Notes: generated by a model from the letters alone, not told the origin. A DNA stretch of 64,000 bases from Patescibacteria group bacterium (GCA_965660445.1 CBFIAK010000001.1:192001-256000); one strand, 5' to 3'. Counted from the first letter of the stretch, positions 20,545-60,041 are shown. Numbers and translations: made by a program.

Positions 20545-20835
20545 AATGGAGACCGGTCTCCATTATGTGTAGATATAGATTCAAAAAAATATTCTAAAAA
20601 AACAAAACCGCATATTTAAGTCAAAAGTTGGAGACCGGTCTCCAACTTATTGGGATTCAGGTTGAGAAATAAGGAACAATCATAAGGCTGTGCACAGTCT
20701 TGTGATTTTTGTGATTCCTGCGATTTATTCTAGATTCTAGATTCTGGGTTCAGGATTCCATGTAGCTCCTGCGCTTCCCCATAATTCATGATTCTTGCTT
20801 TATAATTCTGAAGTGAGAAAAACTTTCTCACTTTA
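20545..20835. repeat. Mosaic repeat locus R1
   Basis: Palindromes 20545-20564 (20 bp) and 20625-20648 (24 bp), 30-bp hairpin 20678-20707, AGATTC heptamers, AAGTGAGAAA/TTTCTCACTT hairpin. Confidence 0.9.
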
Positions 20836-20853
20836 CTGCACTTCCTCTGTCTT

Positions 20854-21080
20854 TCTGTTTGTCATTTTTTGACCACCAAAAAAGAACGAAAAAAGGTGGG
20901 CGACGGTTCTCTATACATGGGAATGAAATGATTCATCAGTGGGAAGCTCTGAACTCCAATTTTTTCATAAATTTAGAATCACAAAAGAAGAGAAAAATTG
21001 TCAGACAGCAGAGCTTCATTATTCCACTGCTTTCATCAATCATTCGCATGTCTTTCGAAAGTCGCGAAAAAAGGAACAGA
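20854..21080. ncRNA. Candidate structured rod-like ncRNA (strand unknown)
   Basis: Nested complementary segments listed in the findings; no convincing ORF. Confidence 0.45.
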
Positions 21081-21566
21081 TTAGAATACGGAATCTTGAA
21101 TCTAGAATCTTGTTTCCATCACAAAAATCACAAGGCTTTGCAAATCCTTGTGATTCCTGCGCTTCTTGCGATTTTACCAAGATTCAAGATTCCAGATTCT
21201 AGATTCTCATTTAGATTCTAGATTCTATTATTATACAATAACTCTAAAAAAACAAAAAATATTATAGCAAAGCCAAAAGTTGGAGACCGGTCTCCAACTT
21301 TTGGCTTAAATATGGGTTTTTGTGTGTCAAACTCTCAAGTTTCCATTATTTTTCAGTCTATACCTACGAAAAATGGAGACCGGTCTCCATTTTATAAGAA
21401 TTAAGATTGAGATTTAGATTGAGAAATAAGGAACAATTATAAGGCTGTGCACAGTCTTGTGATTCCTGTGCTTCCTGCGATTTATTCGAGATTCCAGATT
21501 CTAGATTCAGGATTCCATGTAGCTCTTGCTCTTCCCCATAATTCCTAATTCATGATTCATACTTCA
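21081..21566. repeat. Mosaic repeat locus R2 including the two-palindrome (REPIN-like) unit
   Basis: Hairpins 21126-21155 and 21435-21464; palindromes 21270-21307 (38 bp) and 21370-21393 (24 bp); GAATCT/AGATTC heptamer arrays. Confidence 0.92.
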
Positions 21567-21637
21567 CTATTACTATACAGTAACCCAAAAAAACACACAG
21601 TAAGACCAAGAATACGAGACCTGTCTCGGGGGGGGCT

Positions 21638-22669
21638 TTATCGTTTTATTTTTTCTTCGATATCACCAATACTCGCTTGTCCGCATTGGGCCCCAAATTT
21701 TTGAATCACAAACCCTGAGCTCCAAGCTCCCCATAACAGTTGTTCATCAACGGGTTTTTCTAAAAGAAGGGATGTGAGTATTCCAACCGAAAACGCGTCT
21801 CCTGCCCCAAGGGTGCTTTCTATCGGTACGTCAGGAGCGCATACGAAAAAATGGTTTCCATCATTATCAAAAAGTTGTGCTCCTCTATTGCTATCAGTAA
21901 TCACCACTTTTCCAACTCCCGCATCAAGGAATTTTTGAGCAATCGAACGCATATCAAAAACATGCTCAGGAATGAAAGGAGGATTTATAGATATGTTTTT
22001 TCCACATATCGATTCATCCAAGTCTTTAAACGAAACTTTTTCAGCTGTTTGTTGTGTAAAATATTCACTCTCTTCTTTATTGAGTATTAGCACATCAATT
22101 ACCGGAAATACTTTTTTAAAATGATCAAATCCGTATTGAAACTGAGTTTTTCCTGGGTTCCACCCAATAAGACTTTTCAGGTTGTTTGTCTTCCATTGCG
22201 GAAGCGCTAACAAAAAATCATCAGATTTATCTGTAAGATGTCCTATATAAAGAGATCTCGTCGATGGAGCATTGAACAGATGCGATGGATTAAAATCTTC
22301 TTTTGGGTTTTTGTAATTCAGAACGCTTCGGTGTCCGTCTTGAGCGTTTAAAATAACCGATAAACTCGATTCGCTTTTTTGAGAAATAGTAATGTGAGAG
22401 GTGTCAACCCCTTCTCTGCCGAGCATGTGTCGGATAGTATGCCCTACCGTGTCATCACCCAAAAACCCAAAAGTCGCCGTGCGCATACCAAACTTTAAAA
22501 ACCCAACACTTGCATTTGCCGATGACCCCCCACAAGATTGAGAAATTTTTTGTAACAATATTTTTTCTCCTACCGGAATGATAAAGTTTTCATTCGTTTC
22601 AAGCGGTGTTTGAGGTGTTACAAACACATCAAGTGTAATGGATCCGAAAGTGAGTACATCGTATGTCAT
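21638..22669 (-). CDS. PfkB-family carbohydrate kinase
   Basis: Start MTYDVLTFGSITLDVF; GGSSANAS, WNPG, LILNKEE, STLGAGDAFSVG anion-hole motif. Confidence 0.9.
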   Translation of the reverse strand: MTYDVLTFGSITLDVFVTPQTPLETNENFIIPVGEKILLQKISQSCGGSSANASVGFLKFGMRTATFGFLGDDTVGHTIRHMLGREGVDTSHITISQKSESSLSVILNAQDGHRSVLNYKNPKEDFNPSHLFNAPSTRSLYIGHLTDKSDDFLLALPQWKTNNLKSLIGWNPGKTQFQYGFDHFKKVFPVIDVLILNKEESEYFTQQTAEKVSFKDLDESICGKNISINPPFIPEHVFDMRSIAQKFLDAGVGKVVITDSNRGAQLFDNDGNHFFVCAPDVPIESTLGAGDAFSVGILTSLLLEKPVDEQLLWGAWSSGFVIQKFGAQCGQASIGDIEEKIKR

Positions 22670-22675
22670 CCTTGT

Positions 22676-22735
22676 ATTATAAAGAAAAATAAGCAAAAAG
22701 TCAATTTGACGGTGAGAAGATATTTCTTTTAAGAT
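22676..22735. promoter_or_regulatory. Back-to-back divergent sigma70 promoters
   Basis: Minus strand TTGACT-N17-TATAAT-N6-ATG (pfkB); plus strand TTGACG-N18-TAAGAT-N8-ATG (22744). Confidence 0.6.
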
Positions 22736-22743
22736 ACAAGAGA

Positions 22744-25350
22744 ATGAAAAAAATAATACTTCTCGCTTTTGTCTCTCTTGTGCCTTTCCTCGTGAACGCA
22801 TCAGAACTTGGAGGATTTACCACTCACACCATTAACCCAAGCGTCTTTGATGTTCTTCTTGGAAAAACTGATTTTGGTGGAGATTATGACACAGAAGTCA
22901 GCTCAACTGAGCGTATCACAGCTGAAGAATACGACGGAATCGTACTCAAACTCAAAGCAATCAATGATATTTTGTTTCCTGCTGATTGTGACGACGGTTC
23001 AGTGCTTGTGTGGGATGCAGATGTGTCTTCTTGGGAATGTGGAGCTTCGGAAAGCGGTGGCGGGAGCAGCAGTGACGCATGGATTGTTGATGAAGATAAT
23101 ATGTATGCGAATGTGTCCGGAAATGTTGGAGTGGGAGTTTCTGACCCACTCGCGAAACTTCATGTTGTTTCCGATACAGCAAATCCTATTCGTCTTGAGG
23201 CGGATATTACCAATACTACTGGCTCGACTCAAATTGATATTTTTAATGATGATGCCACTCGTTGGGCATTGGGAGTGAATAGTTCAGCGCATCCAACTCA
23301 TCCTGGTGATGGGTATCTGTGGGGGTACCAAGCAGAAGATTTTCGGTTTGGTGTGCAGGGAACAGAAATACTGAAACTCGGTGCTGATGGAACAATTTCA
23401 ATTCCTTCTTTAGGAGAATGCGGAACTCTTTATACTGATAGTGATGGGGTCCTTACCTGCGGTTCTGGCGGAAGTGGTACCGATGTGGTGTGTAGTGAAG
23501 AAGGTGAAGTTCTGAAATGGATGAATACCGCAGAAGAAGGTGATCCGCAAGTGTATGGATGGGTGTGTGCGGTTGATGAATCATCGTATGCATCTGAAGC
23601 TTTATCACTTGGGTTTTGTGTCGTTTCAGATGGAAATATGCCCAATACTCAATGGATTGCAGGGAGTGGGCCTGTGTTTCGGAAAACTGATGATGAGTCT
23701 GATCCCATGAAACCAGCTCGGTTTTTTCCAGATAAAAATCTTTATGATGGATCGGATTGTGCGTTATCGTGTGCCGATGGATACTCTTGGGATGTCGATA
23801 GAGGATCGTGTGTTCTCCCAAAAAGAATGTGCGGAGAAGGAGAATTCTTAGTTGGGTTTGATGGTATGGGAAATGTTGTGTGTGAATCAGTACGAGAGAT
23901 GACCAGTTATATGACATTTATCGATTCTTTGGGGGCGTGTTCTTCCGTGTCAGATATTCAAGTGATGTGTATGGGGCCTCCAAAAATGCCAATGCCTTAC
24001 CCAAACCCAACACCAGAGTATCCAGACCCCATGCGTGACCCAAGAAACTGTGGAAACCCTCTCGATATTGCGTTTTTTACTCAAGATGATCGAGATTCAA
24101 AAATGTATCGAGTGTTATCTGTAGGCAACGATTGCTGGATGGCTGAAAACCTCAATTTTGATCCGGGAGGGGGGAGTCGGTTGTGTGACCCCGATTCAGG
24201 CGCACCAAATGGGAATTGTACGCTTGGAGGGTTGTATAGTTTTGAAACTATTTTGGGGAATAATGTGAATACGGATGATTTTGATTTTACGTGTGGACAA
24301 AATGGGTGTTATAGAGGAAGCGGAAACCCCAAGTCAGCAGTTGCACCAGTGCGAGGTATTTGTATGCAAGGATGGCATATTCCTACAAAATCTGAGTTTC
24401 AAGGGCTGTCTGGGTATTTACAAACAGAATCGGCAACGGTGGAACGGTTTGGTGTGAATGAAGACGGTGGATATGCTTATTATGATACTATAAATAATCC
24501 TGCGGGGTGGCAGTTTTGGGATTTTTCTGATAAATACTGGGCTGCCTATAGAAACGAATGGACTGATACCAATAATGATAGACTTATTGAGCTTCAGTAT
24601 TTAGAAACAGAAGATGATAATTTTTCATTAGAATCTCTTATGACATCGTTTAGTCAGTTGGGATCGAATGATCCAGATAACTATGCTTATGCACTTCGGT
24701 GTGTCAAAGATCGATCAAATACACAGTATGAATGTAGTGGTACTTTGCCACAAGGGGCTGAGTATTGGGATTGGAGCGACGGACAAACCCCCACGACTCC
24801 AAATGAATCAAAACGGCATATTTTTAATTACGCTGCTAATTATACGCAAGACGCAAACCGGTTTGATTTGCGATGTGATTGGAAATGTAAACACGGAGAA
24901 TATGGGTATTATTACGACTCAAATGTGGGGCAGTGTGTGAGTAATACACCGTTTTGTAATCGACCTGATGATACTGTTTTCTTGGATCCCCAAGGAGAAT
25001 GGAACGATAATGGTGAGTGGCGACGTATGCAACCTGGGATTAATTATACGAATGTACAAACACGGAGTTTATCAGGAACAGGGCAACCATTGAGTTGTCA
25101 GACTCGTTGTTTTGATGGGTATGATCTCACGCAAAACGGGTGCGTGGAACGTCAACCTATGCAAAACCGGTTTGGTTGTGGTTGGTTACCTCCAAACGCT
25201 AACTGGGTTCGTGATGGGCGATATACCACTCCAAATGAGCGACGATGGAAACCGTTTTATGACCCTGATAATGACGACGATGATGCCTGTGCTTATTACT
25301 GTACTGGAAGCACTGAGTTTACTGGGAATAACACATTGGGGTGTCGGTAA
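22744..25350 (+). CDS. Secreted Cys-rich protein with Fib_succ_major (FISUMP)-like domain
   Basis: Signal peptide; GNVGVG..P.AKLHV beta-repeat, CWMAENLNF, GGLYSF, RGICMQGWHIPTKSEF, AYALRCVKD; Cys-rich repeats. Confidence 0.75.
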   Translation: MKKIILLAFVSLVPFLVNASELGGFTTHTINPSVFDVLLGKTDFGGDYDTEVSSTERITAEEYDGIVLKLKAINDILFPADCDDGSVLVWDADVSSWECGASESGGGSSSDAWIVDEDNMYANVSGNVGVGVSDPLAKLHVVSDTANPIRLEADITNTTGSTQIDIFNDDATRWALGVNSSAHPTHPGDGYLWGYQAEDFRFGVQGTEILKLGADGTISIPSLGECGTLYTDSDGVLTCGSGGSGTDVVCSEEGEVLKWMNTAEEGDPQVYGWVCAVDESSYASEALSLGFCVVSDGNMPNTQWIAGSGPVFRKTDDESDPMKPARFFPDKNLYDGSDCALSCADGYSWDVDRGSCVLPKRMCGEGEFLVGFDGMGNVVCESVREMTSYMTFIDSLGACSSVSDIQVMCMGPPKMPMPYPNPTPEYPDPMRDPRNCGNPLDIAFFTQDDRDSKMYRVLSVGNDCWMAENLNFDPGGGSRLCDPDSGAPNGNCTLGGLYSFETILGNNVNTDDFDFTCGQNGCYRGSGNPKSAVAPVRGICMQGWHIPTKSEFQGLSGYLQTESATVERFGVNEDGGYAYYDTINNPAGWQFWDFSDKYWAAYRNEWTDTNNDRLIELQYLETEDDNFSLESLMTSFSQLGSNDPDNYAYALRCVKDRSNTQYECSGTLPQGAEYWDWSDGQTPTTPNESKRHIFNYAANYTQDANRFDLRCDWKCKHGEYGYYYDSNVGQCVSNTPFCNRPDDTVFLDPQGEWNDNGEWRRMQPGINYTNVQTRSLSGTGQPLSCQTRCFDGYDLTQNGCVERQPMQNRFGCGWLPPNANWVRDGRYTTPNERRWKPFYDPDNDDDDACAYYCTGSTEFTGNNTLGCR

Positions 25351-25399
25351 ATAGGTATACAAAGAAATATTTTTAGGTCATTGCAAGCAAAACAACCAA

Positions 25400-25436
25400 A
25401 AAAAGAGAAAACAGATGTAACGTTTTCTCTTTTTTT
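25400..25436 (+). terminator. Probable intrinsic terminator
   Basis: AAAAAAGAGAAAAC..GTTTTCTCTTTTTT hairpin after the 22744 gene. Confidence 0.6.
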
Positions 25437-25472
25437 ACGTTATAGAAACTGGTAATACGTACGAAAAATAAT

Positions 25473-25500
25473 TTGATTTTTTCTGTTTGATTCGTATGAT
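25473..25500 (+). promoter_or_regulatory. Putative S-layer gene promoter with ~320-nt leader
   Basis: TTGATT-N16-TATGAT; ATG at 25825. Confidence 0.45.
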
Positions 25501-25824
25501 TGCCGAGGTTTGAACAGCTTGTGGCATTCTGGCTTAACTCCTGTTCCGCTTCATGCGCAAAAAGATCTCAGCTCTTTGACACAGACGACAAAAAGAAAAA
25601 GCTTGTGTTTCAGTATAGACATCTTCGAAAGAAGACGAAAGAAACAACACACACTTTTTTTAGAAAAAGCATGCAGATGTATCAGATGGTATTTCCAGTT
25701 GTTATTGCACGCTTCATCACAAAGAACGAGAAAGACAGAAAAAAACAAATCAGACATTTTAAGAACGAGATACTCCAAATATATATATCGCTTTTTCTTT
25801 ATTATTTTTTAATTACTACTAAAA

Positions 25825-28800
25825 ATGGGATTCTTTACGAATATTAAACAAGGAATTGCATCAGTAGCATTAGGAGCTATGGCATTTGCGGTTTTACCGT
25901 TGAACGCACAAGCACAACTTATGTTCTCTGATGTAATGGAAATTCCTTCTTGGTCTGTGGAAGCTATTGAAGAGCTTATGGATCAAGGAGTGATTAGTGG
26001 GAACGACGATGGATCTTTTGCACCAAATCGACAATTAAATCGAGCAGAAGTTTCAAAAATTATCGTTCTTGCGACTGGTCTTCCAATTGACACATCAGGA
26101 GGTTCTGCCTTTCCAGATGTAACAGAAGGAGATTGGTTTTATGACTACGTTGTAACAATGTATAACTACGGGTACATCAATGGATACCCTGATGGACTTT
26201 TCCGACCAGGTGTTGGGATCAACCGAGCTGAAATGGCTAAAATGGTTGTGAACGCATTTGAATTGGATCAAGACCTTTCAGGAGCTCCTCATTTTGGAGA
26301 CGTATCATCAAGTGATTGGTTTTACGGATTCGTTGAAACAGCATACAACGCAGGTCTTATGCGAGGATACGGTGATGGTTCATTCGGACCAGCAAACGCT
26401 GTAACTCGTGCTGAAACTGTAAAAATTGTATACGATGCTCAGTTAGCAGTTATGGCTCCAGTTGGACCAGCTGACGGAACATTGGAAGTGGCTTTGTCTA
26501 TGGACACACCACGAGGAACAAACATTCCTTACAACGCAACTTCAGTGCCATTCTTGACTGTTGAAATGACTGCATCTGATGATAGTGATGTAGAAGTTTC
26601 TTCTATGACTTTCACTCGACTTGGTTTGGGTGACAACGACGATTTCAAAAAGGTATGGCTTGAAATTGACGGGTTCAAAATCGGAAACGATAAATCAGTA
26701 AACAATGCTGACATCGCAGAACTTCGGTTTAATCCTCCAATCGTTATTCCAGCTGGAATGACATTGATGGCTGACTTGGTAGCATCTACTAAGTTCACTG
26801 GTGATGATCAAAATGTTGGTCATTACAACCGATTTGCTGTTGTATCAGCACAAGACATTGTATCTTCTGCATTAAATGTTGTAGGAGACTTCCCAATTGA
26901 AGGGGAAGAAATGCAAGTAACATCATACGAAGTTTCACAACTTCGATTCAGCGCTTTGGGATCAGACACGACTATTGAAGTTGGAAACAGCTTTGTAGAA
27001 GTTGGTAAATTCCGAATCTTAAACGGTTCGAATACAAACAAAGACGTTGAGCTTCGAGCTATTACCTTCAAAAACGATGGTACAGCTGAAGTAGCTGATG
27101 CATTTGAAAACTTGTCATTGTATGTTTCAGGAGAACAAATTTCAGCTGAAACAATCATTGACGGAGACTACGTTACATTCCGACTCGATAACGGTATCAC
27201 TGGTGGATACGTTGTAGAAGACGGAGACAGCCGAATTTTCTCTATTCGAGCTGATGTAGTTTCTGCTGAACGAAACGACACAATCAACTTCAAAGTTGAT
27301 AACTATGAAGACATTGTAGGTGTTGAAATCGGAACAGCATTTGGTGTTCGAGCAGTAGCTGGAGACGCAGGACGATCTTTAAGCACTTCAAATAACGCTC
27401 AAACAACAGCAACATCTCCGGCTTGTGTGGCAGGAACAAACGTTGCTGAAGACAACTGTGCACGTTTATACATGTACAGCGTTGATTCAGGAGACTTGAA
27501 CGTTTCTCGAGACCCAGCGTCTTTAGGAAACCAAGAATACGCTCCAGGATCAAACGATGTTGTGTTTATGACGGCACGATTGGTAGTTGACCAACCGCTT
27601 TTGGCTGATGGAGTAAACCTTTACATCGCTTCAGGATCTACGGTTGACGGAGACGACAAATTGACTGAATTCAACAACCGATTCGATAACTTCCGATTGT
27701 ACTTAAACGATCGAATGATCGATAGTGAAAACGATTTCGTAGGTGATACTGATTGTACAGTTACGGCAACGTCATGTTACCTTGAATTCGATACAACATT
27801 CGAAATCGCAGGAACATCTATCTTGAAATTGGTTGGGAATATTACACAAAACGCTGAAGACGACGATCAAATCAAATTGAGCGTTTCAGCAACAAACTTC
27901 TCTTCAGTAGAATACATTTCTACAGGAGACCAAGTGTCTACATCTCAATTATTGGGATCAGCAACGTCTTCATTTGTTCAAGTACAACAATCAAGCTTGG
28001 TTATTTCTCGAACAGATGGTCTTCCATCTGGGCAAGAGCTTGTAGCAGGGGTTGATGACATGACATTCTTAGGGTTCGTTTTGGATAACAACGATTCAGG
28101 AGATGTAAATGTAACATCAATCACTATTGCAGCTGATACAGATGCCAATACCACTAATGCTGGTGACGGAGTTTCTGGTTCGGCTCGAACATACTCTAAC
28201 TTTACAGGAGCAATCTTTGTAGACGGAGTACAACAAGGTTCTGCGAAAAACTTTACCTCTACTGGTTCAGCTACTTTCAACGACCTTTCAACTGTGATTC
28301 CTTCGGCTTCACAAAAAGAATTCACTCTTGTAATTGATACAATTGAGGCTTCTGCAACTGATATTGCAACAACTATTAGCGATGCTGGTGGTGCTGTAGC
28401 AGAATCAGGAGTAGCTACATGGACTGTAACAAGTACAACTGGTATGACTGTTGGTGACCTTTTGGTTGTAACTGATGGTACAAATACTGATGTACGAGCT
28501 ATTACAGCAATTGTAGATGCTGATAGTGTGACTGTGGATTCTGCAGCTGGTAATAACTATGCAGCAGGAGATACAGTAACTATTCGACACCAAATCAAAT
28601 TCGACGTTAGTGACGTTGATGCTGATAACGTTGAAAACGGACAATCAGTTGAAATTACACCAACTTCTATTGATGGGAATCTTTTCGTTCTTGTTGATTC
28701 AGGAAGCTTAACTGTAAGTATGGGTTCAACTGTGTTCTCAGATATTATCGTTGCTGGTCAAAAAGAAGTTGAAATTGGACGAATCCGATTCAACGCTTCA

Positions 28801-30102: not shown

Positions 30103-30162
30103 TCAATGGATATGATATCTATCATGCCAATCTTCCTTGCCTAAAACACAAGGAAAACCACA

Positions 30163-30198
30163 AAAACCCCCAGCGCCTTCGGGCACTGGGGGTTTTTT
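30163..30198 (+). terminator. Intrinsic terminator of the S-layer gene
   Basis: AAAAACCCCCAGCGCC-ttcg-GGCACTGGGGGTTTTTT. Confidence 0.9.
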
Positions 30199-30209
30199 GT
30201 GAAGCGCAG

Positions 30210-30349
30210 GAGCGCTTTAGCGCTCGAATCTTGAATCTTGAATCTAGGGAAAATCACAAGGTTTTCTAAAGCCTTGTGATTTTTGTGATGGGAACAAGAT
30301 TCTAGATTCAAGATTCTAGATTCTCATTTAGATTCAAGATTCCTACTTC
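30210..30349. repeat. Mosaic repeat locus R3
   Basis: GAGCGCTTTAGCGCTC 30210-30225, heptamers, hairpin 30252-30281, GATGGGAACAAGATTC linker, AGATTC heptamers. Confidence 0.9.
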
Positions 30350-30413
30350 TCTCTTGTTATTCCTTTTTTCATTTCTATAATACAACTAACACATTCCTTT
30401 CCCCTTTTCTTCT

Positions 30414-31655
30414 ATGTCTCTTCAATCCCAAGACCCCGCCGTATACAGCGCTCTTCAAGGCGAAATTGAACGCCAAAGCACAGGGCTCGAACTTATCCCG
30501 TCAGAAAACTATGTGTCTCAAGCCGTGCTTGAAGCATCTGGTTCTATACTTACCAATAAATACAGCGAAGGATACCCTGGACGTCGTTACTACGGAGGTC
30601 AAGAATATACCGATATCATCGAAAACCTTGCCATCGAACGAGCGTGCAGTCTTTTCAATTGCCAATACGCAAACGTGCAACCTCATTCTGGTGCTCCTGC
30701 CAATATCGCTACCTATTTTGCGTTGCTTCAACCCGGAGACACTATTTTAGGAATGGATCTTTCCCATGGTGGGCACCTAACCCACGGACACCCCGTGACT
30801 CATATTGCCAAAATTTTTCGGTTTGTACGATACGGTATGAAAGATATTACTACCGGAGAAATAGACTACGAAGCTCTTCGCCAAACAGCCCTCAAAGAAA
30901 AACCAAAAATGATCTTAGCCGGGTTTTCCGCCTACCCGCGTGAACTCGACTACCAAAAATTTGCCGATATCGCCCAAGAAGTCGGCGCTTATGCCGTTGC
31001 CGATATCGCCCATATCGCCGGACTTATCGCCGGAAAAGCACTCGCAAACCCGTTTGACTACGGGTTCGATGTGATGCTCTCAACAACCCATAAAACCCTT
31101 CGAGGTCCTCGAGGTGGGCTTATACTCGTGAAAGAGAACCCCGATATCATTAAAAAAATTAATAAATCAGTGTTCCCTGGGTTCCAAGGCGGTCCACATA
31201 TGCACCAAATTGCCGCTAAAGCAGTCTGCTTTGCAGAAGCACAAGATCCGTCGTTTCAAACCTATGCTCAAAACGTTATCCAAAACGCCAAAGCGATGGC
31301 AGACGTGTTTCTGCAAGAAAAAATTCGACTCATCACAGGAGGAACGGATAACCATCTTTTACTGGCGGATGTCTATAGTTCGCTCGGGGTTACCGGAAAA
31401 GAAGCCCAAACTGTGCTTGATGAAGTAGGAATCACCCTCAATATGAACGCTATCGCCGACGATCCACGCCCCCCCCTTGATCCATCAGGAATACGGTTTG
31501 GTACCCCAGCCATAACAACACGAGGGTTTGGTGTAAAAGAGTCAAAACAAGTCGCTCACGTGATGATTAACGTCTTAAGAGACAAAGATAACCCCGAAAC
31601 TAAAAAACGCGCTCGAAACGAAATTTTAGCGTTGTGTGAGGAGTATGCAGTATGA
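30414..31655 (+). CDS. glyA: Serine hydroxymethyltransferase
   Basis: LIPSENY, NKYSEGYPGRRYYGG, STTHKTLRGPRGG (PLP lysine). Confidence 0.98.
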   Translation: MSLQSQDPAVYSALQGEIERQSTGLELIPSENYVSQAVLEASGSILTNKYSEGYPGRRYYGGQEYTDIIENLAIERACSLFNCQYANVQPHSGAPANIATYFALLQPGDTILGMDLSHGGHLTHGHPVTHIAKIFRFVRYGMKDITTGEIDYEALRQTALKEKPKMILAGFSAYPRELDYQKFADIAQEVGAYAVADIAHIAGLIAGKALANPFDYGFDVMLSTTHKTLRGPRGGLILVKENPDIIKKINKSVFPGFQGGPHMHQIAAKAVCFAEAQDPSFQTYAQNVIQNAKAMADVFLQEKIRLITGGTDNHLLLADVYSSLGVTGKEAQTVLDEVGITLNMNAIADDPRPPLDPSGIRFGTPAITTRGFGVKESKQVAHVMINVLRDKDNPETKKRARNEILALCEEYAV

Positions 31656-31813
31656 ATCTCTGATTCATACTTCAGAATCTTGAATCTAGAATCTAAATTA
31701 GAATCTGGAATCTTGAATCTAGAATCTTGTTCCCATCACAAAAATCACAAGGCGTTGCAATGCCTTGTGATTTCTTCTAGATTCCAGATTCTAATTTGAG
31801 CTCTTTAGAGCTC
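31650..31813. repeat. Mosaic repeat locus R4 (approximate reverse complement of R3)
   Basis: GTATGAATC-tct-GATTCATAC, GAATCT heptamers, CTTGTTCCCATC linker, hairpin 31743-31772, GAGCTCTTTAGAGCTC 31798-31813. Confidence 0.9.
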
Positions 31814-31940
31814 CATAATATACCAAAAATTCACTTTGGCTCCCTTGGGTGGTGCTGAAGTGAATTTTTTCCTTTTTAAAAGGGGGTATTCTCGATTTAT
31901 CGAGATATAGAGGGGGAAATGGTTTCCCCCTCTACCCCCT

Positions 31941-32432: not shown

Positions 32433-32540
32433 GAAAAAGAAATTAAATATTTCTTTTACCCTACTCACACTCCCAAAAAAATCAAGAAACTATTCGTCAA
32501 GATATAAAAAATAAGTATAGTAACCCTATATTTTCTTGGT

Positions 32541-47530: not shown

Positions 47531-47539
47531 TTTTCTTTT

Positions 47540-48999: not shown

Positions 49000-49013
49000 A
49001 TGAAATGAGGGAG

Positions 49014-49574: not shown

Positions 49575-49736
49575 GAGAATAAAATTAAAAAAAATGTCGC
49601 TTGAAGTATAGAGTGTGTTTTTCGCGTGGTCAAGGGTTTGAGAGAAGTTTGTGGAGGACTTGTTTTTTTGTAAAAACACGTATATTGATTTATTCGGCTT
49701 GATAGTGTATAATGAAAGGAATATAATACTTTTGAA

Positions 49737-50504: not shown

Positions 50505-50532
50505 AAAAACCGTCTGTGTGTAGATTGTGAGT

Positions 50533-51111
50533 ATGAAAATACTCATCAATACCGCCATTAAACCTCATTTTTGTGCGTGCGTCGATACCGATGAGCGTCT
50601 TTTGGATGTGGTGTTTTGGGATACTCCACGACAAGACGGAGAACACATATATGCGTTTTTTAAAAAACATGAATCACTTTTGTCACAAATAACCGCTATT
50701 GGCGGTATTTCTGGACCTGGTGGGTTTTCGAGTTTGCGTGTGGGAATGTTGGTACTCAATACGTACCGGTTTGTGTATGGATGTGAAATTTATACGGTTT
50801 CTGCTGATATGTGTATGCAAGAATACAAAAAAAATATGCCTGCTCATACCGTGATAGTCCTCAACTCATTTGGAAAAAAAGGATGGATTGTGAAAGAGAA
50901 CGGGTTTGTCTTGGTGGATGATATTGCACAATGGGTCAGCGAATCATCAGATAGACTGTGTCTTGATTTTTTACCGTTCGAAAAAAGAAATGGACGAAAA
51001 AACGATGTTGAAGTGGATACATCAGCGTTTCCAATAATGCTGTATCGGGCATTGCAAAAATCAAATTCTGTAGCGGCGGCACATCCTGAGTATGGGTTTG
51101 ATGTCGTTTAA
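50533..51111 (+). CDS. tsaB: TsaB-like t6A biosynthesis protein
   Basis: ILINTA N-terminus; ISGPGGFSSLRVG motif. Confidence 0.7.
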   Translation: MKILINTAIKPHFCACVDTDERLLDVVFWDTPRQDGEHIYAFFKKHESLLSQITAIGGISGPGGFSSLRVGMLVLNTYRFVYGCEIYTVSADMCMQEYKKNMPAHTVIVLNSFGKKGWIVKENGFVLVDDIAQWVSESSDRLCLDFLPFEKRNGRKNDVEVDTSAFPIMLYRALQKSNSVAAAHPEYGFDVV

Positions 51112-52370: not shown

Positions 52371-52467
52371 ATCGTCTTTTATGGTTTCAGTATAGAAGAA
52401 ACCATAAAAAAAGAAAAACAAGCGTAAGAGTATTGTGTTTTTGAGAAATTTTTTTACATTGACTACG

Positions 52468-54234: not shown

Positions 54235-54235
54235 A

Positions 54236-54500
54236 AGAATTCTTCGAATTCAGAATCTTGAATCTTGAATCTGGAGTCTTGAATAAATCGCAGGAATCGC
54301 AGGAATCACAAAAAAATCACAAGGATTTGCACAGCCTTATGATTTTTCCTTATTTCTTAATCTTCATCTCAATCTTATTTCTTAAAACAGAGACCGGTCT
54401 CCAACTTTTAGCTTTGTTGTGCGTTTTTTTGTTTTTTTGAAATCATTTTATAATATTGTTTTAGATTCCGGATTCGAGCGCCTCAGCGCTCTTGCGATTC
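54236..54500. repeat. Mosaic repeat locus R5 with fused palindrome
   Basis: Heptamers, AATCGCAGG 9-mers, hairpin 54315-54344, 6-mer array, GAGACCGGTCTC 54390-54401, GAGCGCCTCAGCGCTC 54476-54491. Confidence 0.9.
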
Positions 54501-54526
54501 CCTCTAAGAGAACGTATACTGACGTT

Positions 54527-54997
54527 ATGTATATAATTGGGATTGATCCGGGGTATGATCGTTGTGGGTTTGCGGTATTGCGTTTCTCTCAAGAAAACCA
54601 ATCACCAATTATCGAGCTTACAGGAGTGCTGACAACTCAGAAAACACAAACATTCCAAAATCGTTTATATGAAATTGGAACCGATATTGAAAAACTGTTT
54701 CAGCGGTTTCCACCGACATGTGTTGTTTTAGAAGATTTATTCTGGGGAAAAAATCATAAAACAGCCTTATTAGTCTCTCAAATTAGAGGCGTTATTACCT
54801 ATCAAGCGTTGCAACATGGAGCTATTGTAAAAGAACCAAAACCAGTGGAAGTAAAAAATATGTTTACTGGAAACGGAAAAGCAACCAAACAAGAAATGAA
54901 GAAAATGGTTGAGCTTGTATTTCAAATCAATGCACAAGATATTCTAGACGATACTATAGATGCTATCGCTATGGCGGCTATAGCGAATGTAGCTTGA
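54527..54997 (+). CDS. ruvC: Holliday junction resolvase RuvC
   Basis: MYIIGIDPG..RCG, VLEDLF, RGVI, P.EVK..FTGNGKATK, DDTIDAIAMA. Confidence 0.93.
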   Translation: MYIIGIDPGYDRCGFAVLRFSQENQSPIIELTGVLTTQKTQTFQNRLYEIGTDIEKLFQRFPPTCVVLEDLFWGKNHKTALLVSQIRGVITYQALQHGAIVKEPKPVEVKNMFTGNGKATKQEMKKMVELVFQINAQDILDDTIDAIAMAAIANVA

Positions 54998-55030
54998 CTA
55001 AACGAATAAATATATTGTATAATATAAAGG

Positions 55031-56035
55031 ATGGACTCAAAAGATACGTCTAAAGAAGAAAATAAAAAGATAATTCCTTCAGAAGAATCTGATATTTCTG
55101 TGAAAAAAAAACCACCAGTTGTGGCGGCGGAGTCGAGTGCTGTGATCGATGAGGATGACGAAGCACTGTATGATGAAGATGAAGACGAAGATCTTTTGGT
55201 CGAAAACGATGGCGATTTTTTTTGGTTATTACAACGAGCAATATGGACTATTGTGAAAATTCTTTTTTCTTTTGGGGCGCTCTTTTTGATTGTTTGGGTT
55301 ATTTGGAGTGATGATGAAGAAGTATCTGTACAAGAAACTGAGCAACAAGCCGAGTCTGTGCAAGAAAACACTCCCTCAGTTGATCCAGTTCAAACACAAA
55401 CGGCGAAAAAACAGTTACCGGTTGAAAAGGCGACTCCTGTTTCTTCAGAGCCATCCCCTGCGTTTCAAAATCGTGCTGTGCAGGATGCCCTTCAGGAAGA
55501 AATCATCTTAAGAGATGATATTGGAGTTTATATGCAATGGAATAAACGAGTGAAGACTTTTTTTGAAACCCGCATGGATGTTACTCGTTGGGGGGAATCT
55601 CCAGAAGTTCGATCACAATCACTCGATAAATTTTTAGACGATATTTATACCTTTGTTACGGAATCTATTCACCTGCGGAGACAGCTCGTTCAGAAACTCA
55701 ATGGGTACTATAATGGTATTACGCATAATACAGAACTTATCGAATATCACACCCTGCGTTTAAATGAAGCATTGTCTTTAGTGCGTCCAGATGAAGTTGA
55801 GTTTCACGTGTATAAAAAAATAGCGTTCCAGAAACAACGAGAACAAAACACGGTTTTTTATGATACGAATAAATACGCACTCCAAATGATGGAAATGTAC
55901 GATAAAGCTCTCAGAGATGTTTATTATAAAGCACAAGCCAACAAAAGAGCTCTTATTTATAATATTCAAGTCGTGCAGTTTCAAGACGATCCATTTGCAA
56001 GAGTTTTAACACCTGCACAGTGGCAATCGCGATAA
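55031..56035 (+). CDS. Hypothetical single-pass membrane protein
   Basis: Acidic N-terminus, TM, helical C-terminal domain; strong promoter directly upstream. Confidence 0.65.
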   Translation: MDSKDTSKEENKKIIPSEESDISVKKKPPVVAAESSAVIDEDDEALYDEDEDEDLLVENDGDFFWLLQRAIWTIVKILFSFGALFLIVWVIWSDDEEVSVQETEQQAESVQENTPSVDPVQTQTAKKQLPVEKATPVSSEPSPAFQNRAVQDALQEEIILRDDIGVYMQWNKRVKTFFETRMDVTRWGESPEVRSQSLDKFLDDIYTFVTESIHLRRQLVQKLNGYYNGITHNTELIEYHTLRLNEALSLVRPDEVEFHVYKKIAFQKQREQNTVFYDTNKYALQMMEMYDKALRDVYYKAQANKRALIYNIQVVQFQDDPFARVLTPAQWQSR

Positions 56036-56051
56036 AGCTATTATTGTTGAG

Positions 56052-56510
56052 TTATTGTGGAAAAGCCCATCCTTTAACCTCACTTTCATCAATCCACGTT
56101 TGAGTTTCTTGTAATATAAAGTCCCAACCAACTTTTGTTTTCGTTCCATGAGCAAGTAAAACTTTATCATCTTGTGTATGAATAAGTATTTGTGTACTCT
56201 TTGGTGGTTTTATTTTTGATAAATAATTAAATTTTCTACCATCTTCACATTCGTAACAACAACCTATATCTGAAGTATGATTTGTAAGAGAATGTTCTTC
56301 AGTTTCAATAGAATTCAGGAGTTTATATACGTATTTTGAAAATTCATCACTCGTTTGAAACACCGGATGAAGAATTTCAGTTTTTAAACTATGGAGTCGG
56401 AGGGTGTCTTTATCTTGAATAGCTTCTTGTATTCGTTTTTGGAAATGAGCGCAGAAATCTTCGGGAGAATGAAATTGATGTATTTGTTCGTAATGGGATT
56501 CGTAGTTCAT
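56052..56510 (-). CDS. Hypothetical protein
   Basis: 152 aa ORF. Confidence 0.55.
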   Translation of the reverse strand: MNYESHYEQIHQFHSPEDFCAHFQKRIQEAIQDKDTLRLHSLKTEILHPVFQTSDEFSKYVYKLLNSIETEEHSLTNHTSDIGCCYECEDGRKFNYLSKIKPPKSTQILIHTQDDKVLLAHGTKTKVGWDFILQETQTWIDESEVKGWAFPQ

Positions 56511-56642
56511 AATAGTAAATGAGTATGAATTTTTCAGAAAAAATTATAGTCTTTGAACGAAAAAAATCAAAAAAAACAAGGAATCCTTTATTTGACAAAA
56601 AGAGAATGCTCGTTAATATGCATGCGTTCTTTTTATACATAT

Positions 56643-56717
<75 letters not shown>

Positions 56718-56724
56718 CAAAAAA

Positions 56725-56814
56725 GCACGAGTGGCGGAATTGGTAGACGCGCTAGCTTGAGGGGCTAGTGAGATATTTTTTCTCGTGGAGGTTCAAGTCC
56801 TCTCTCGTGCACCA
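56725..56814 (+). tRNA. tRNA-Leu(GAG)
   Basis: GCACGAG acceptor stem, CTAGC-TTGAGGG-GCTAG, long variable arm, GGTTCAAGTCC, ACCA end. Confidence 0.96.
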
Positions 56815-56820
56815 GAAGAG

Positions 56821-57262
56821 CAGTGAAGTGAAAATTAGAATCTTGAATCTGGAATCTAGAATCTAGAATAAATCGCAGGAATCACAAAACAATCACAAGG
56901 TTGTGCAAAGACTTGTGATTTTTCCTTATTTCTTAATCTTCATCTCAATCTTAATTCTTATAAAATGGAGACCGGTCTCCGTTTTTTGTAGTTATAGACT
57001 AAAAAATAATTAAAGCTTGAGAGTTTGACATGCAAAAGTTTATGTTTAAGCCAAAAGTTGGAGACCGGTCTCCAACTTTTGGCTTTGTTGTGCGTTTTTT
57101 TGTTTTTTTAGGGTTGTTGTATAATAATAGAATCTTGAATCTAAATAAGAATCTGGAATTTTGAATCTTGAATCTTGAATCTAGAATAAATCGCAGGAAT
57201 CACAAGGTTGTGCAAAGACTTGTGATTTTTTCCATAATTCCTAATTCATACTTCCTACTTCT
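56821..57262. repeat. Mosaic repeat locus R6 (contains an inverted copy of the R2 two-palindrome unit)
   Basis: Hairpins 56891-56920 and 57198-57227; palindromes 56967-56980 and 57048-57085 (38 bp); heptamer arrays. Confidence 0.92.
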
Positions 57263-57409
57263 AAACTCACAGATTTTATTTCGATTGACTCTTTCTTTAT
57301 TTTTGTAATACTTTGGTCTGTACTTTGAGTGTGTTTTAGAGAGAACAGCAAAACTAGGAAAAGATTGAAAAAACCTCATTTTTCTGGTATAATAGAGTTT
57401 CTGCAATTC

Positions 57410-59839
57410 ATGAAAAAACACAAAAAAATTCTGCTGAGATTATCAGTCCCTCAAAATAATAAGAGAGGGCCAGTTGCTTTTGAGCAGATTTTAGCGAGTC
57501 TTCATGGACTTCTGACAAAAGAAATCCAACGAAGTGGAGACGAGGAAATAACGTTTGAAATTGTGCGAAAAGATCGTCGTATCTATTTTTATATTGTCGT
57601 ATCTACGCATTTGCAAACACTTATTGCGTCTCAGTTTTATGCGCAATACCCAGATATTGAAATCGAAACAGTGAAAGAATATTTTACAAAAAACTTTATT
57701 AAAGGAAAACAACTTCTGCTTGCCGATCTTCAGCCAGGAGAACCATGGGTGTTCCCTTTTAAACGACATCCTCAATTTTTCGATAGCTCATCAGGGCTTT
57801 TTGAAGATCCTATTGGTCCTATAACCGCTGCATTATCACATCTGCAAAATATAGAAGATTCAGCCGTTATTCAGTTCGTTATTACTCCTATTGATCCAAC
57901 TTGGAACAATAGAGCTAAAAAAGTATTAAAACGGTTTATGAGTGGTGGTGTTTGGGATTGGCAATGGCTGAGAGATAAGTATCAATGGGTAATGCTTGAT
58001 CCAAGCACTGAAAAATCGGTTCAGAAGTTCTTTGTACGAAAACTTATTGATGTTTTCTTCTGCTGGAGCGGAAATGCCGCAATGCCTGTATCAGGCGGGC
58101 AAACAGAAGCAACATCAGGAAAACATGATCGGGAAACAGTATTTGATGCCGCGTATGACAAAACAACACGTCTTAATTTTGGAACGAACATACGAGTTAT
58201 GTATATCCATAAAGACCCAGATAGCGCTCATGCAGATGCAAAAATACGTGAAATAGCAGGAACGTTTCAACAGTTTTCGTTACCGCAAATGAACCATTTT
58301 ATCGTTCAACGTATCGAACGAAATCACCAAAACCAGTTATTTAAAGATATGGTTGCTCGACGCAACCGAAATCCATTTGCATTGAGCCAAGAAGAATTAG
58401 CAACAATATACCATTTGCCAACAGAAACAGTCAGAAGTGCGGGGATTCAATGGGTAATTTCTCCGAAACTAGAACCTCCAGTCGATCTTCCTTCCGATAA
58501 CGAAGAAAGTATTACTCTTATTGGAGAAACAAATTTTAGAAACCAAAAACAAAAATATGGTATTCGTGTCGATGACCGTCGTCGACATGTGTATATCATC
58601 GGGAAAACAGGTATGGGGAAATCAACACTATTGGAAAATATGATTTTTTCAGATATTGCCGCCGGAAAAGGAGTAGGGATTATCGATCCACATGGAGATT
58701 TGGCAGAAGCAGTAATGCGATTTATCCCAAAACATAGAACAAATGATGTTATCTATTTTGATCCTTCAGATCGTGATTTTCCAATTGCGTTTAATATGTT
58801 GGAAGGAAAAAATAAAGAACAAAGAAGTCTTATTGCTTCTGGACTCGTTGGCGTTATCAAAAAATTAAATATTGATTCATGGGGACCACGACTTGAGCAT
58901 TTCTTAAGAAATACAATATTAGCCTTAGTTGAAGCACCAGATACAACTATGCTTGGGATTACACGTATGCTTGTCGATCCAGTCTATAAAGAAAAAATAC
59001 TTCATTTTGTTCAAGATCCTATGGTTCAGAGTTTTTGGAGAACAGAGTTTGATAAACTAGCCCCTCAAAAACGAGCAGAAGCTATCGGACCTATCCAAAA
59101 CAAAGTTGGTCAATTTCTCGCAACCCCTATTATCAGAAATATCGTTGGACAACCAAAATCAACCCTTGATATTCGGTTTGCTATGGACTCTGGGAAAATC
59201 GTTATTGTTAACCTTTCAAAAGGAAAAATAGGAGAAGATAATTCCTCTATGCTCGGATCACTCCTTATTACAAAGTTTCAAATTGATGCAATGAGCCGAG
59301 CCGATATCCCTGCAAAAGATCGACGAGATTTCTATTTGTACGTAGACGAGTTTCAAAATTTTGCTACCGATTCGTTTGCATCTATTCTTTCTGAAGCTCG
59401 AAAATATAAACTCAATCTTACTATGGCCAATCAATACGTAGCGCAAATGTCAGACGAAGTGAAAGCGGCTGTATTTGGAAATGTAGGATCCCTTGTGTCA
59501 TTTCAGGTAGGAATTGATGATGCTCGTGTGTTTTCAGAACAGTTTGATCCAGAAGTTGTTGAACCTATTCATTTAGCTTCTGTCCCTAAGTATTCAGTGT
59601 ATAATCGTATTATGGTTGATGGAATCACTTCTCCTGTTTTTTCAGCTGTAACGTTACCGCCACCAGATATTCAAGCCGATGAAGATCGAGAAGAACGGTA
59701 CCAAAAAATATTAAAATTCTCTCGTCAAAGATACGCAAAACCACGCGATACAGTAGAAAACAAGATTATTCGATGGACTCGCCCAGAAGAAGAAAAACGG
59801 AAAAAGAAAGACGATGATGTCGATGACAAATCAAGATAA
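57410..59839 (+). CDS. VirB4/TraG(VirD4)/HerA-like P-loop ATPase (CPR-type)
   Basis: DRRRHVYIIGKTGMGKS (Walker A), IDPHGDL, LYVDEFQNF (Walker B), LSEARKY, ANQY. Confidence 0.88.
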   Translation: MKKHKKILLRLSVPQNNKRGPVAFEQILASLHGLLTKEIQRSGDEEITFEIVRKDRRIYFYIVVSTHLQTLIASQFYAQYPDIEIETVKEYFTKNFIKGKQLLLADLQPGEPWVFPFKRHPQFFDSSSGLFEDPIGPITAALSHLQNIEDSAVIQFVITPIDPTWNNRAKKVLKRFMSGGVWDWQWLRDKYQWVMLDPSTEKSVQKFFVRKLIDVFFCWSGNAAMPVSGGQTEATSGKHDRETVFDAAYDKTTRLNFGTNIRVMYIHKDPDSAHADAKIREIAGTFQQFSLPQMNHFIVQRIERNHQNQLFKDMVARRNRNPFALSQEELATIYHLPTETVRSAGIQWVISPKLEPPVDLPSDNEESITLIGETNFRNQKQKYGIRVDDRRRHVYIIGKTGMGKSTLLENMIFSDIAAGKGVGIIDPHGDLAEAVMRFIPKHRTNDVIYFDPSDRDFPIAFNMLEGKNKEQRSLIASGLVGVIKKLNIDSWGPRLEHFLRNTILALVEAPDTTMLGITRMLVDPVYKEKILHFVQDPMVQSFWRTEFDKLAPQKRAEAIGPIQNKVGQFLATPIIRNIVGQPKSTLDIRFAMDSGKIVIVNLSKGKIGEDNSSMLGSLLITKFQIDAMSRADIPAKDRRDFYLYVDEFQNFATDSFASILSEARKYKLNLTMANQYVAQMSDEVKAAVFGNVGSLVSFQVGIDDARVFSEQFDPEVVEPIHLASVPKYSVYNRIMVDGITSPVFSAVTLPPPDIQADEDREERYQKILKFSRQRYAKPRDTVENKIIRWTRPEEEKRKKKDDDVDDKSR

Positions 59840-60041
59840 GAATCTTGAATCTGGAATCTAAATAAGAATCCGGAATCTGGAATCTTGAATCTTGAATAAA
59901 TCGCAGGAATCACAAAAATCACAAGGCTGTGCAAAGCTTTGTGATTTTTTCTATAATTCATAATTCTGAAATCGGAGATTTCACTGCGCTTCTGCGATGG
60001 GAACAAGATTCCAGATTCCGGATTCGAGCGCTTTAGCGCTT
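59838..60041. repeat. Mosaic repeat locus R7
   Basis: Heptamers, 9-mers, hairpin 59917-59946, GATGGGAACAAGATTC linker, GAGCGCTTTAGCGCT from 60026. Confidence 0.9.

Follow-up and report, generated by a model that had tools for sequence, protein, structure and literature searches.

A candidate REP/BIME-like repeat mosaic beside a RAYT-like transposase gene in the genome of a Patescibacteria group bacterium

Bacterial interspersed mosaic elements (BIMEs) of Escherichia coli are mosaics of Y and Z repetitive extragenic palindromes (REPs) in alternating orientation, joined by named linker motifs. The short tandemly repeated repetitive (STRR) sequences of Cyanobacteria are intergenic tandem repeats of heptamers. 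In the replication origins served by HUH (histidine–hydrophobic–histidine) Rep enzymes of circoviruses and geminiviruses, the loop of a hairpin is nicked, and short binding sites are iterated next to the hairpin; Y1 transposases of the fold shared by IS200 and REP-associated tyrosine transposases (RAYTs) cut beside hairpins, not in the loop. REPs have been defined as 20–40-nt imperfect palindromes with a conserved GTAG or CGTC head (PMC3733652), systems of RAYTs with REPs or REP doublets forming hairpins (REPINs) are described in Pseudomonas and Enterobacteria (PMC3116915; PMC3337134; bioRxiv 10.1101/119735), and intergenic direct repeats of the heptamer TAACTGA, in Beggiatoaceae, Cyanobacteria and Bacteroidetes (PMC4679880). 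Here we analyze a family of dispersed composite repeats in a 64,000-nt stretch of the genome of a Patescibacteria group bacterium (the window; G000:C1:192001–256000, that is, contig 1 of genome G000, a 991,330-bp assembly in five contigs with G+C content of approximately 37%). Seven repeat loci between positions 20545 and 60041 of the window had been listed in a previous reading made from the sequence alone (below, the sequence-only reading), and a gene encoding a RAYT-like transposase, P0001, precedes the first of them.

We interpret these loci as lineage-specific, non-coding and non-autonomous REP/BIME-like mosaic repeats built of two interleaved layers, a reading to which we give about an even chance. 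The first layer would be the palindrome GGAGACCGGTCTCC, usually paired 93 bp apart, as the cognate repeat of P0001, a single-copy RAYT-like HUH tyrosine transposase, which, by analogy with E. coli TnpA-REP, may bind hairpins in single-stranded DNA (ssDNA) and cut and rejoin the strand beside them. The second layer consists of arms, each comprising GAATC heptads in blocks of four, a linker and from one to three 9-mers repeating the stem of a hairpin, the arms meeting in inverted orientation at palindromic centres, namely a 30-bp hairpin and two smaller hairpins. Arms and composites may have been copied whole to tolerant intergenic sites (3' gene ends, sites behind tRNA genes, sites between a terminator and a promoter), and the copied elements would then have been reshuffled through exchange at palindrome centres. 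The data below show the anatomy, copy number and placement of the repeats, the RAYT and its link to the palindrome, and the independent assortment of hairpin halves; we infer that the RAYT also moves the second layer, that the elements are mobile now or were so recently, and that the exchange occurs at hairpin tips.

The repeat modules are present in all seven listed stretches, far above their frequency in shuffled sequence, and the repeats extend genome-wide. Compared with 100 dinucleotide-preserving shuffles, GAATCTNGAATCT occurs 34 times in the window (shuffle mean 0.03), the 28-nt core of the 30-bp hairpin with at most two mismatches, nine times (0.07), and the palindrome GAGACCGGTCTC with at most one mismatch, also nine times (0.04), two of its copies, at 18819 and 21616, being located outside the listed loci. 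The count of nine hairpins, most of them with a central TGCA, agrees with that given previously, TGCA being found in eight of the nine (by reading of the match table). Period-7, period-9 and period-6 series are detected by Tandem Repeats Finder at the places stated in the sequence-only reading.

In the whole genome, self-BLAST yields 36 loci with at least 20 hits each, covering 11,499 bp, or 1.16% of the assembly. The 30-bp hairpin is present in 44 copies, the GAGACCGGTCTC 12-mer in 29 copies, and heptamer arrays, 99 in number and comprising 316 units, are mostly (89) inside the 36 loci; of the ten others, eight are loose two-unit matches in open reading frames (ORFs), and two are at a tRNA spacer. 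On contig 1 the loci are dense at 144–308 kb and 788–828 kb, and the region 605–788 kb is empty; judging from GC skew, replication of this contig starts near 160 kb and ends near 650 kb. Composites of 300–470 bp recur in the genome at 66–88% identity.

The sole public run holding the window is a DNA run kept as contigs and labeled marine plankton metagenome. In this run, the summed contig depth is 112–303 in five of six bins over repeat loci and 57 in the sixth one, corresponding to the tail of the first locus, compared to 17–22 in unique bins, and hence the data themselves contain the repeats in many copies, as opposed to an artefact of assembly. Two contig ends are in repeats. Exact 77-bp overlaps were observed between C1:518–594 and C2:1–77, and among C4:8488–8564, C1:801253–801329 and C1:794040–794116; these look like k-mer overlaps of the assembler, and in the genome the contigs are probably connected via repeats.

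The gene of P0001 (198 aa) is located at 19907–20503 on the plus strand, and its ORF ends 42 bp before the largest repeat cluster (1,024 bp in the self-BLAST map), so that the RAYT invoked in the sequence-only reading is indeed present and directly adjoins the largest cluster. P0001 matches the Pfam family Y1_Tnp with 29.2 bits (cut-off 23) and constitutes the only Y1_Tnp locus in the genome. Its single match among PDB sequences is 4ER8, E. coli TnpA-REP, with the HUH and Tyr motifs aligned; the best fold match of its AlphaFold2 (AF2) model (13 homologues, pLDDT 78.6) is again 4er8_A, with template modelling (TM) scores of 0.56/0.66, IS200/IS605 transposases coming next. Both motifs are invariant in the 13 homologues. 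By motif, catalytic-type Tyr and predicted fold, P0001 appears to be a RAYT-like Y1 HUH transposase. Of 400 other genomes of the class, 73 have RAYT homologues, as do 20 of the 42 genomes of the same family; most of these genomes have one or two matches, and supported pairs on the RAYT tree (21 rows, with in-frame stops of five recoded or broken homologues read as X) unite genomes of one genus. The RAYT has one locus in this genome and is inherited vertically, as is characteristic of REP–RAYT systems.

Homologues of P0001 in many genomes from other families of the class (e.g., G217, G195, G251, G362) contain one to eight TGA codons in frame, as would be expected if TGA were a sense codon in these lineages. 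The family of the window's genome has no such in-frame TGA, save single stops in three genomes.

Apart from runs of A and T, no palindrome other than GAGACCGGTCTC is iterated in the genome. Five of its 29 copies are at most 3.6 kb away from the RAYT gene, the nearest one 42 bp 3' of it, and the next, an isolated GGAGACCGGTCTCC palindrome at 18815–18835 outside the previously listed coordinates, 1.1 kb 5' of it. Among the modules, only GAGACCGGTCTC flanks the RAYT gene; the 30-bp hairpin is found 3' of the gene and not 5' of it. The core of the palindrome is a perfect 12–14-mer, reaching 24 and 38 nt when extended in the first and second members of a pair; a GTAG word follows the first member of the pair at 8–10 nt in several copies of this genome, but not in relatives.

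A similar association is observed throughout the class: in 17 of 20 RAYT loci (including that of the window) the gene is surrounded by a perfect 10-bp palindrome repeated at least twice, compared to none of 26 control loci from the class. The palindromes vary among genomes, but have a CG centre in common. AGTTCGAACT, AGACCGGTCT, AGTCCGGACT and AACCCGGGTT are each present in at least two RAYT loci, and GATCCGGATC, ATCCCGGGAT, CACCCGGGTG and ACCCCGGGGT, in one RAYT locus each. The 12-mer of the window's genome is iterated 34, 13 and 11 times in three RAYT-bearing genomes of the same family, with no occurrences of the control pattern, and AGTTCGAACT occurs 70 times in G024 vs. zero for the control pattern. 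In 10 of 19 relatives' loci palindromes are also present in the RAYT ORF itself, in a variable linker after the HUH motif. As GAGACCGGTCTC behaves as the RAYT's own repeat both here and in relatives, it is most likely the cognate REP of this RAYT.

The in-ORF palindromes are in frame and often paired (L055:1796–1828, L052:1749, L054:1730–1761, L059:1734–1761, and others), and in G232 and G281 (L069 and L070) palindromes are present within other coding regions too.

The tokenised strings of all 36 loci are chains, in which arrays alternate with palindromic centres. The first half of the common full form (approximately 200–250 bp) is comprised of an end hairpin, GAATCTN heptads, 9-mers and the 30-bp hairpin, and the second half, of inverse heptads of a second series, a small hairpin, inverse 9-mers, inverse heptads and an end hairpin; this form is found in reverse complement too. 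In a second form the second-series heptads are outermost, and a composite of approximately 440 bp contains a palindrome pair flanked by two arm-plus-hairpin units. Whole elements fold as ssDNA into long compound hairpins with energies from –35 to –49 kcal/mol (z from –8 to –9). The loci thus conform to the definition of BIMEs as mosaics of alternating palindromic units and fixed linkers, and the description of a composite BIME-like mosaic, made of palindromes and linker arrays, given by the sequence-only reading stands.

Its further statement that the elements were built by accretion is too loose, as whole arms and composites of several hundred nucleotides recur and the layout is fixed, with arms apparently recombined by rule at palindrome centres. 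Of the 99 heptamer arrays, 50 consist of exactly four units, 35 of two, 12 of three and two of five; a conserved 12-base interruption and three linker types are recurrent in them, and the arrays are not free-running microsatellites. The arms read outward from the 44 hairpin centres are of at least six types in 18 pairings. Fifteen palindrome-type arms and 12 second-series arms are always opposite a heptad-type or an unclassified arm, and no pairs of two non-heptad arms are observed, compared to approximately four expected (by arithmetic on arm counts). In 15 of the 44 cases the hairpin is linked to a palindrome arm at a constant distance.

The distribution of substitutions within the modules is uneven. 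For its analysis the arrays were aligned from the linker, the heptamer itself not serving as the anchor, with 74 anchors, of which approximately 13, as estimated by eye, are chance ones and were retained. In the three heptads next to the linker, the six GAATCT positions keep the top base in 74–91% of the 74 anchors, while the seventh position does so in 39–41% only, being split among G, A and T; the 50 four-unit arrays have 32 distinct patterns of seventh bases. Similarly, the outer nine pairs of the hairpin are near-invariant in 44 copies, while the remaining element sequence differs by 12–34%. The inner pairs of the hairpin show no such trend: pair 13/18 is matched in 22 of 44 copies vs. 22.0 expected with shuffled right halves, pair 11/20, in 17 vs. 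20.3, and all six inner pairs yield 181 matches vs. 184 expected (p 0.74). Since the inner pairs are matched no better than in shuffled combinations, the two halves of the hairpin have separate histories, and the inner stem evolves without compensatory change; the halves assort independently. The retention of GAATC at a 7-bp period alongside a randomised seventh base, taken together with the independence of the hairpin halves, argues for constraint at the level of sequence.

These observations bear on an alternative explanation, in which the heptad blocks and 9-mers form binding arrays for a host DNA- or RNA-binding protein that reads GAATC once per seven bases, the elements being architectural or regulatory rather than selfish. 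The contrast between the six conserved positions and the seventh one, the predominance of arrays of exactly four units, and the near-invariance of the outer 9 bp in both hairpin halves all fit such a protein, and the omega repressor provides a precedent for reading of 7-bp heptads. However, there is no candidate protein, as Omega_Repress, the sole binder family searched, has zero hits in the genome; the loci have no simple chromosomal pattern, the arrays are missing in relatives, and recognition by the element's own transposase could produce the same conservation. We consider a host binding array quite unlikely.

The independent assortment of the hairpin halves can also be viewed from the enzyme's side. 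CG-centred palindromes may be fast-turnover substrates of RAYTs, and in this genome the hairpin, 9-mers and heptads may form an origin-like module that is nicked and rejoined at or near the hairpin tip, with arms being swapped. Such enzymatic arm swapping would explain at once the independent hairpin halves, the arm pairing rule and the mosaic grammar; still, we regard it as speculative and improbable. If true, it would represent a mode of repeat evolution undescribed for REP/RAYT systems.

The second layer has a much narrower distribution than the palindrome. The exact hairpin pattern yields only single unrelated matches: seven in 185,579 species genomes, three in JGI metagenome contigs and one in viral contigs, the records of this genome itself being possibly excluded from these scans. 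The genome studied has 38 occurrences of three phased GAATCT units; of 400 other genomes of the class, 10 have from one to six, and the 42 genomes of the same family have none. The GAATCT loci inspected in other genomes of the class are plain arrays with other modules missing, and in the viral contigs we observe seven homogeneous GAATCTN arrays and one lone hairpin, none of them accompanied by a second module. The heptad-and-hairpin family was found only in this genome among those searched, and the situation named in the sequence-only reading as contradicting mobility, with loci fixed and orthologous in distant relatives, was not seen.

Arrays of another heptamer, TCTAAGY, are present in other genomes of the class (L033, L034, L037, L038, L042 from G006 and G023; L031 and L043 from G260; L032 from G116), several of the inspected ones 10–25 bases upstream of a start codon. 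In G260 (L043:1500–1983) inverted arrays surround a gene resembling, as judged by eye, a small four-helix-bundle (23S rRNA IVP-like) gene.

For analysis of placement, genes were mapped using crude ORF calls and ARAGORN tRNAs. Out of 36 loci, 33 could be placed, in 32 intergenic regions, the other three being at contig ends, and every placeable locus is intergenic. The first two loci of the window (20545–20835 and 21081–21566) share one 1.1-kb spacer, and therefore the seven listed loci correspond to six intergenic regions. Each of the six is located 3' of a gene or a tRNA, as the sequence-only reading had claimed for every locus, and three are also 5' of the next gene. Genome-wide, convergent spacers constitute 15 of the 32 repeat-bearing ones (162 of 903 in the background, binomial p 1.6e-4), tandem spacers, 16, and divergent spacers, only one (161 of 903 in the background, p 0.03). 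In total, 31 of 32 repeat-bearing spacers are 3' of a gene, and eight adjoin a tRNA gene. The median length of spacers is 470 bp with repeats and 42 bp without them. At 13 of 33 placed loci the repeat extends 1–26 bases into the flanking ORF or tRNA. Orientation of the elements shows no bias with regard to gene strand or replichore. The flanking genes are ordinary ones, including those for serine hydroxymethyltransferase (SHMT), an FKBP-type isomerase, RuvC, ribosomal protein L15, a HerA/TraG-like ATPase, the ATP synthase beta subunit and BipA. The genes between repeat loci likewise either are ordinary, such as those for the ATP synthase beta subunit, BipA, and proteins of the TP_methylase and 3-dmu-9_3-mt families, or encode products with no Pfam match.

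This placement is what would be expected if the repeats were transcription punctuation, the 30-bp hairpin with its A-tract and T-tract being a bidirectional intrinsic terminator or a stabiliser of mRNA 3' ends, spread by usefulness. In addition to the enrichment of convergent spacers and the almost universal 3' location, such a role agrees with T-rich tails (at least five T in eight) on at least one strand of 43 of 44 hairpins and on both strands of 21, with the median RNA folding energy of the hairpins, –12.5 kcal/mol, and with a consensus scan that calls one hairpin and one palindrome terminator-like. On the other hand, at some genes the repeat is preceded by the gene's own G+C-rich terminator (30162–30197; C1:440.9 kb), the heptad arms, 9-mers and second hairpins exceed the needs of a terminator, and the inner stem pairing is not preserved by compensatory change. 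Moreover, three phased GAATCT units are missing from all 42 genomes of the same family, and the orientation of the elements is independent of gene strand and replichore. We view transcription punctuation as an unlikely explanation, albeit one to be taken seriously.

Several observations weigh against a REP/BIME-like mosaic moved by the RAYT. P0001 scores 58.4 bits with the NCBIfam model REP_Tyr_transpos, under its cut-off of 80. The palindrome types show no clustering on the RAYT tree beyond that of shuffled labels (13 changes vs. 14.0), and sister RAYTs (100/96 support) carry different palindromes, so co-evolution of RAYT and palindrome, that is, a tight match of enzyme and sequence, is unsupported. 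In genomes of relatives with both the palindrome and the RAYT, matches to the 442-bp composite are marginal and confined to the palindrome or its immediate vicinity; as these genomes have no heptad/hairpin layer, the RAYT is insufficient for that layer. Repeat loci are at most 88% identical over at least 300 bp, the exception being one pair with 93.5% over 278 bp; the copies are, as far as their divergence indicates, old or fast-changing. One contig-level DNA run and the relatives, whose gene order around glyA and atpD differs, yielded neither a presence/absence polymorphism nor a target-site duplication or an empty site. Finally, GAATC periodicity, a random seventh base and fixed blocks of four are more reminiscent of sequences constrained by a binding factor than of selfish copies decaying neutrally.

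The search for filled and empty sites was as follows. Two contig sets from the same study, X1 and X3, are interrupted at the repeats, the joints being due to repeat copies, and show no polymorphism. In none of 11 relatives' loci examined does glyA adjoin the neighbours that it has in this genome (an FKBP gene and an SLH gene), and the neighbours of atpD also differ in relatives, a DUF6941 gene following atpD in 2 of 15 loci. In G013 an rsmI match is 1.3 kb away from atpD with other genes between them, and the 58-bp spacer of atpD and the adjacent convergent gene is repeat-free. No orthologous filled/empty pair of sites was found around glyA and atpD in relatives. At G000:C1:800968–803640 (L074:14969–17641) a TP_methylase family gene and a DUF6941 gene are situated between two large repeat clusters; these two genes are inverted relative to atpD as compared to G024 and G291, in which atpD is followed by DUF6941 on its own strand, and the called N-terminus of this DUF6941 ORF extends into a repeat.

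The divergence of copies and the existence of genomes with both RAYT and palindrome, but without the heptad/hairpin layer, also agree with a further alternative, in which only GAGACCGGTCTC is a substrate of the RAYT, and the heptad/hairpin family is an inert, RAYT-independent fossil generated by slippage, hairpin template switching and ectopic recombination. No near-identical dispersed copies exist, three short-form palindromes fit deletion between two 12–14-bp direct copies, and whole-segment tandem duplications are present at C1:359 kb, 441 kb and 749 kb. However, slippage or recombination alone could hardly reach 36 separate spacers over 1 Mb, the arm pairing is non-random, with no pairs of non-heptad arms, the uneven conservation argues for ongoing constraint, and a third of the hairpins (15 of 44) retain a constant distance to a palindrome arm. 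We find an inert fossil more improbable than the other explanations, and the two-layered REP/BIME-like mosaic remains the preferred reading.

The loci of the window illustrate the variety of layouts. The first composite locus, 20545–20835, begins 42 bp 3' of the RAYT stop codon and contains a palindrome pair at 20549/20631 with 82-bp spacing, a 30-bp hairpin at 20678–20707, inverse 9-mers, inverse GAATCT heptads, second-series heptads and a small end hairpin. In the second composite locus, 21081–21566, a heptad arm, a hairpin at 21126–21155 and an inverse arm are followed by a palindrome pair at 21283/21376 with 93-bp spacing, a hairpin at 21435–21464, an inverse arm and second-series heptads; a variant palindrome is located beyond it, at 21616–21627.

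Between these two repeat patches there is a unit of approximately 235 bp (20862–21097, minus strand) that is not a module and may represent cargo or a small gene. Further copies of this unit are located at G000:C1:793864–794144, C1:801086–801354 and at the end of C4. Three aligned copies are near-identical, differences being confined to one five-column stretch, while the flanking repeat modules are far more diverged. In one copy the homology stops within the loop of an adjacent small hairpin. The unit contains a 37-codon ORF on the minus strand (20936–21049) with a hydrophobic stretch and a charged tail, whose predicted product is reminiscent of a type I toxin or a small membrane peptide. An Rfam search of 20500–21650 with E up to 1 produced weak matches alone, far below gathering scores; in an Rfam-type RNA scan of the window only three tRNAs reach gathering scores.

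The simple element at 30210–30349 is comprised of an end hairpin, three heptads, a hairpin and a long inverse heptad arm, and folds as a single long hairpin (–35.4 kcal/mol, z –8.3); it is preceded by the upstream gene's own strong terminator mentioned above (30162–30197) and followed by a promoter-like site of glyA (30354–30381). The element at 31650–31813 has a heptad arm, a hairpin, a short inverse arm and an end hairpin (–35.5 kcal/mol, z –9.1), the stop codon of glyA (TGA, 31653–31655) being inside its first heptad. Next to it, at 31826–31868, there is a hairpin with a conserved loop of approximately 21 nt (TGGCTSCCTTGGSTGGTGCTG), also found at G000:C1:441046, 441331, 441444 and C2:10362; its stems vary among copies, remaining complementary in both intact ones, and at C1:441 kb this hairpin is split, with the loop triplicated around heptad elements.

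The element 5' of ruvC (54236–54500) consists of a small hairpin, heptads, 9-mers, a hairpin and a 6-mer series, and then of a single short-form GAGACCGGTCTC palindrome, T-runs, inverse heptads and an end hairpin. The full composite of approximately 440 bp (56821–57262), 3' of two tRNA genes, starts with an arm and a hairpin followed by a 6-mer series, a palindrome pair at 56968/57061 (93 bp), T-runs, a second arm with a hairpin, and second-series heptads; it has seven further near-full-length copies in the genome (303–396 bp aligned) with 75–85% identity. The stop codon of the ATPase gene upstream marks the start of the last listed locus of the window, an element of approximately 200 bp at 59838–60041, in which two inner hairpins are enclosed by inverted heptad arms, with an end hairpin (–49.1 kcal/mol, z –8.2). 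Elsewhere in the genome, at G000:C1:749246–749672, there is a tandem duplication of approximately 165 bp 3' of tRNA genes, with a small hairpin and an inverse heptad array of four units in each copy; in G032 (L024) a tRNA is followed by an array with a hairpin of similar kind.

The sequence-only reading had also proposed that other small nucleases may own some of the modules, which is unsupported among the families tested in the genome. DUF559 and DDE_Tnp_1 have zero hits, further nuclease and DDE families being outside the search, and a Cas12f1-like/TnpB zinc ribbon is represented by one 17-bit match below the cut-off. The only four-helix-bundle gene of the genome (C1:488920) has no repeat locus beside it. 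We also considered a link to restriction–modification: for GGTCTC, GTCTC, ACCGGT, GANTC words, AGCGCT, GAATTC, TCTAGA and other sites the observed/expected ratios are 0.70–1.43 and patternless, and therefore this idea was dropped. Another idea considered was that the CAGGAAT 9-mers might act as a CsrA sponge.

REP/RAYT systems have been studied almost exclusively in Proteobacteria. We found no description of such a system in Patescibacteria, candidate phyla radiation or Peregrinibacteria in the literature searched, although supplements of REPIN/RAYT surveys might list RAYTs from them. The sole paper containing both "REP-associated tyrosine transposase" and "candidate phyla radiation" uses the former as a KEGG label only, and none of six names for these phyla occurs in the main text of a phylogenomic survey of HUH enzymes. 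That 1.2% of a 1-Mb genome is devoted to a rule-bound repeat mosaic is unexpected, since the median spacer of this genome is 42 bp. The system is a compact test case, with one enzyme, one clear cognate palindrome, and a second layer allowing for sharp predictions about binding and cleavage. The class-wide link between RAYTs and fast-changing CG palindromes, some of which are in coding sequence, constitutes a separate lead on the choice of substrate.

Among the known systems, HUH Rep origins share with the second layer a hairpin adjoined by direct repeats of its own stem (here the 9-mers, and then heptads) with an HUH enzyme encoded nearby, but P0001 belongs to the Y1 transposases with the IS200/RAYT fold, and a replication function is not implied. 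Of the features of miniature inverted-repeat transposable elements (MITEs), inverted heptad arms are present, and neither a consistent duplication at element ends nor hits to DDE_Tnp_1, the only DDE family searched, are observed. Tandem 7-base units, few per set, with many intergenic sets per genome and a patchy phylogeny, are common to the heptads and the TAACTGA and STRR repeats. However, the sets of the latter are typically located just upstream of start codons, while the heptads described here are 3' of genes and within larger palindromic elements; the TCTAAGY arrays of four other genomes of the class resemble the TAACTGA repeats more closely than the GAATC heptads do.

The similarity to REP/REPIN–RAYT systems involves the single copy and vertical inheritance of the HUH Y1 transposase, the presence of the iterated palindrome of its own genome on its flanks, pairing of palindromes, and extragenic repeats forming lineage-specific families. 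Unlike in these systems, the palindrome is a short, perfect 12–14-mer with a CG centre, present in tens and not hundreds of copies, and has no consistent GTAG/CGTC head. Palindromes of relatives also occur in frame within genes, including the RAYT gene (10 of 19 loci), the palindrome type shifts between sister RAYTs, and P0001 is under the NCBIfam cut-off. The resemblance to E. coli BIMEs is claimed in organisation only and not as a sequence relation to E. coli REPs: in both cases a few palindromic units alternate in orientation, the set of linkers is small, the elements are located at 3' ends of genes, and there is one RAYT per genome. The mosaic described here differs from BIMEs in that its linkers are phased heptad blocks and 9-mers, it has four palindromic centres, and its arms obey a pairing rule.

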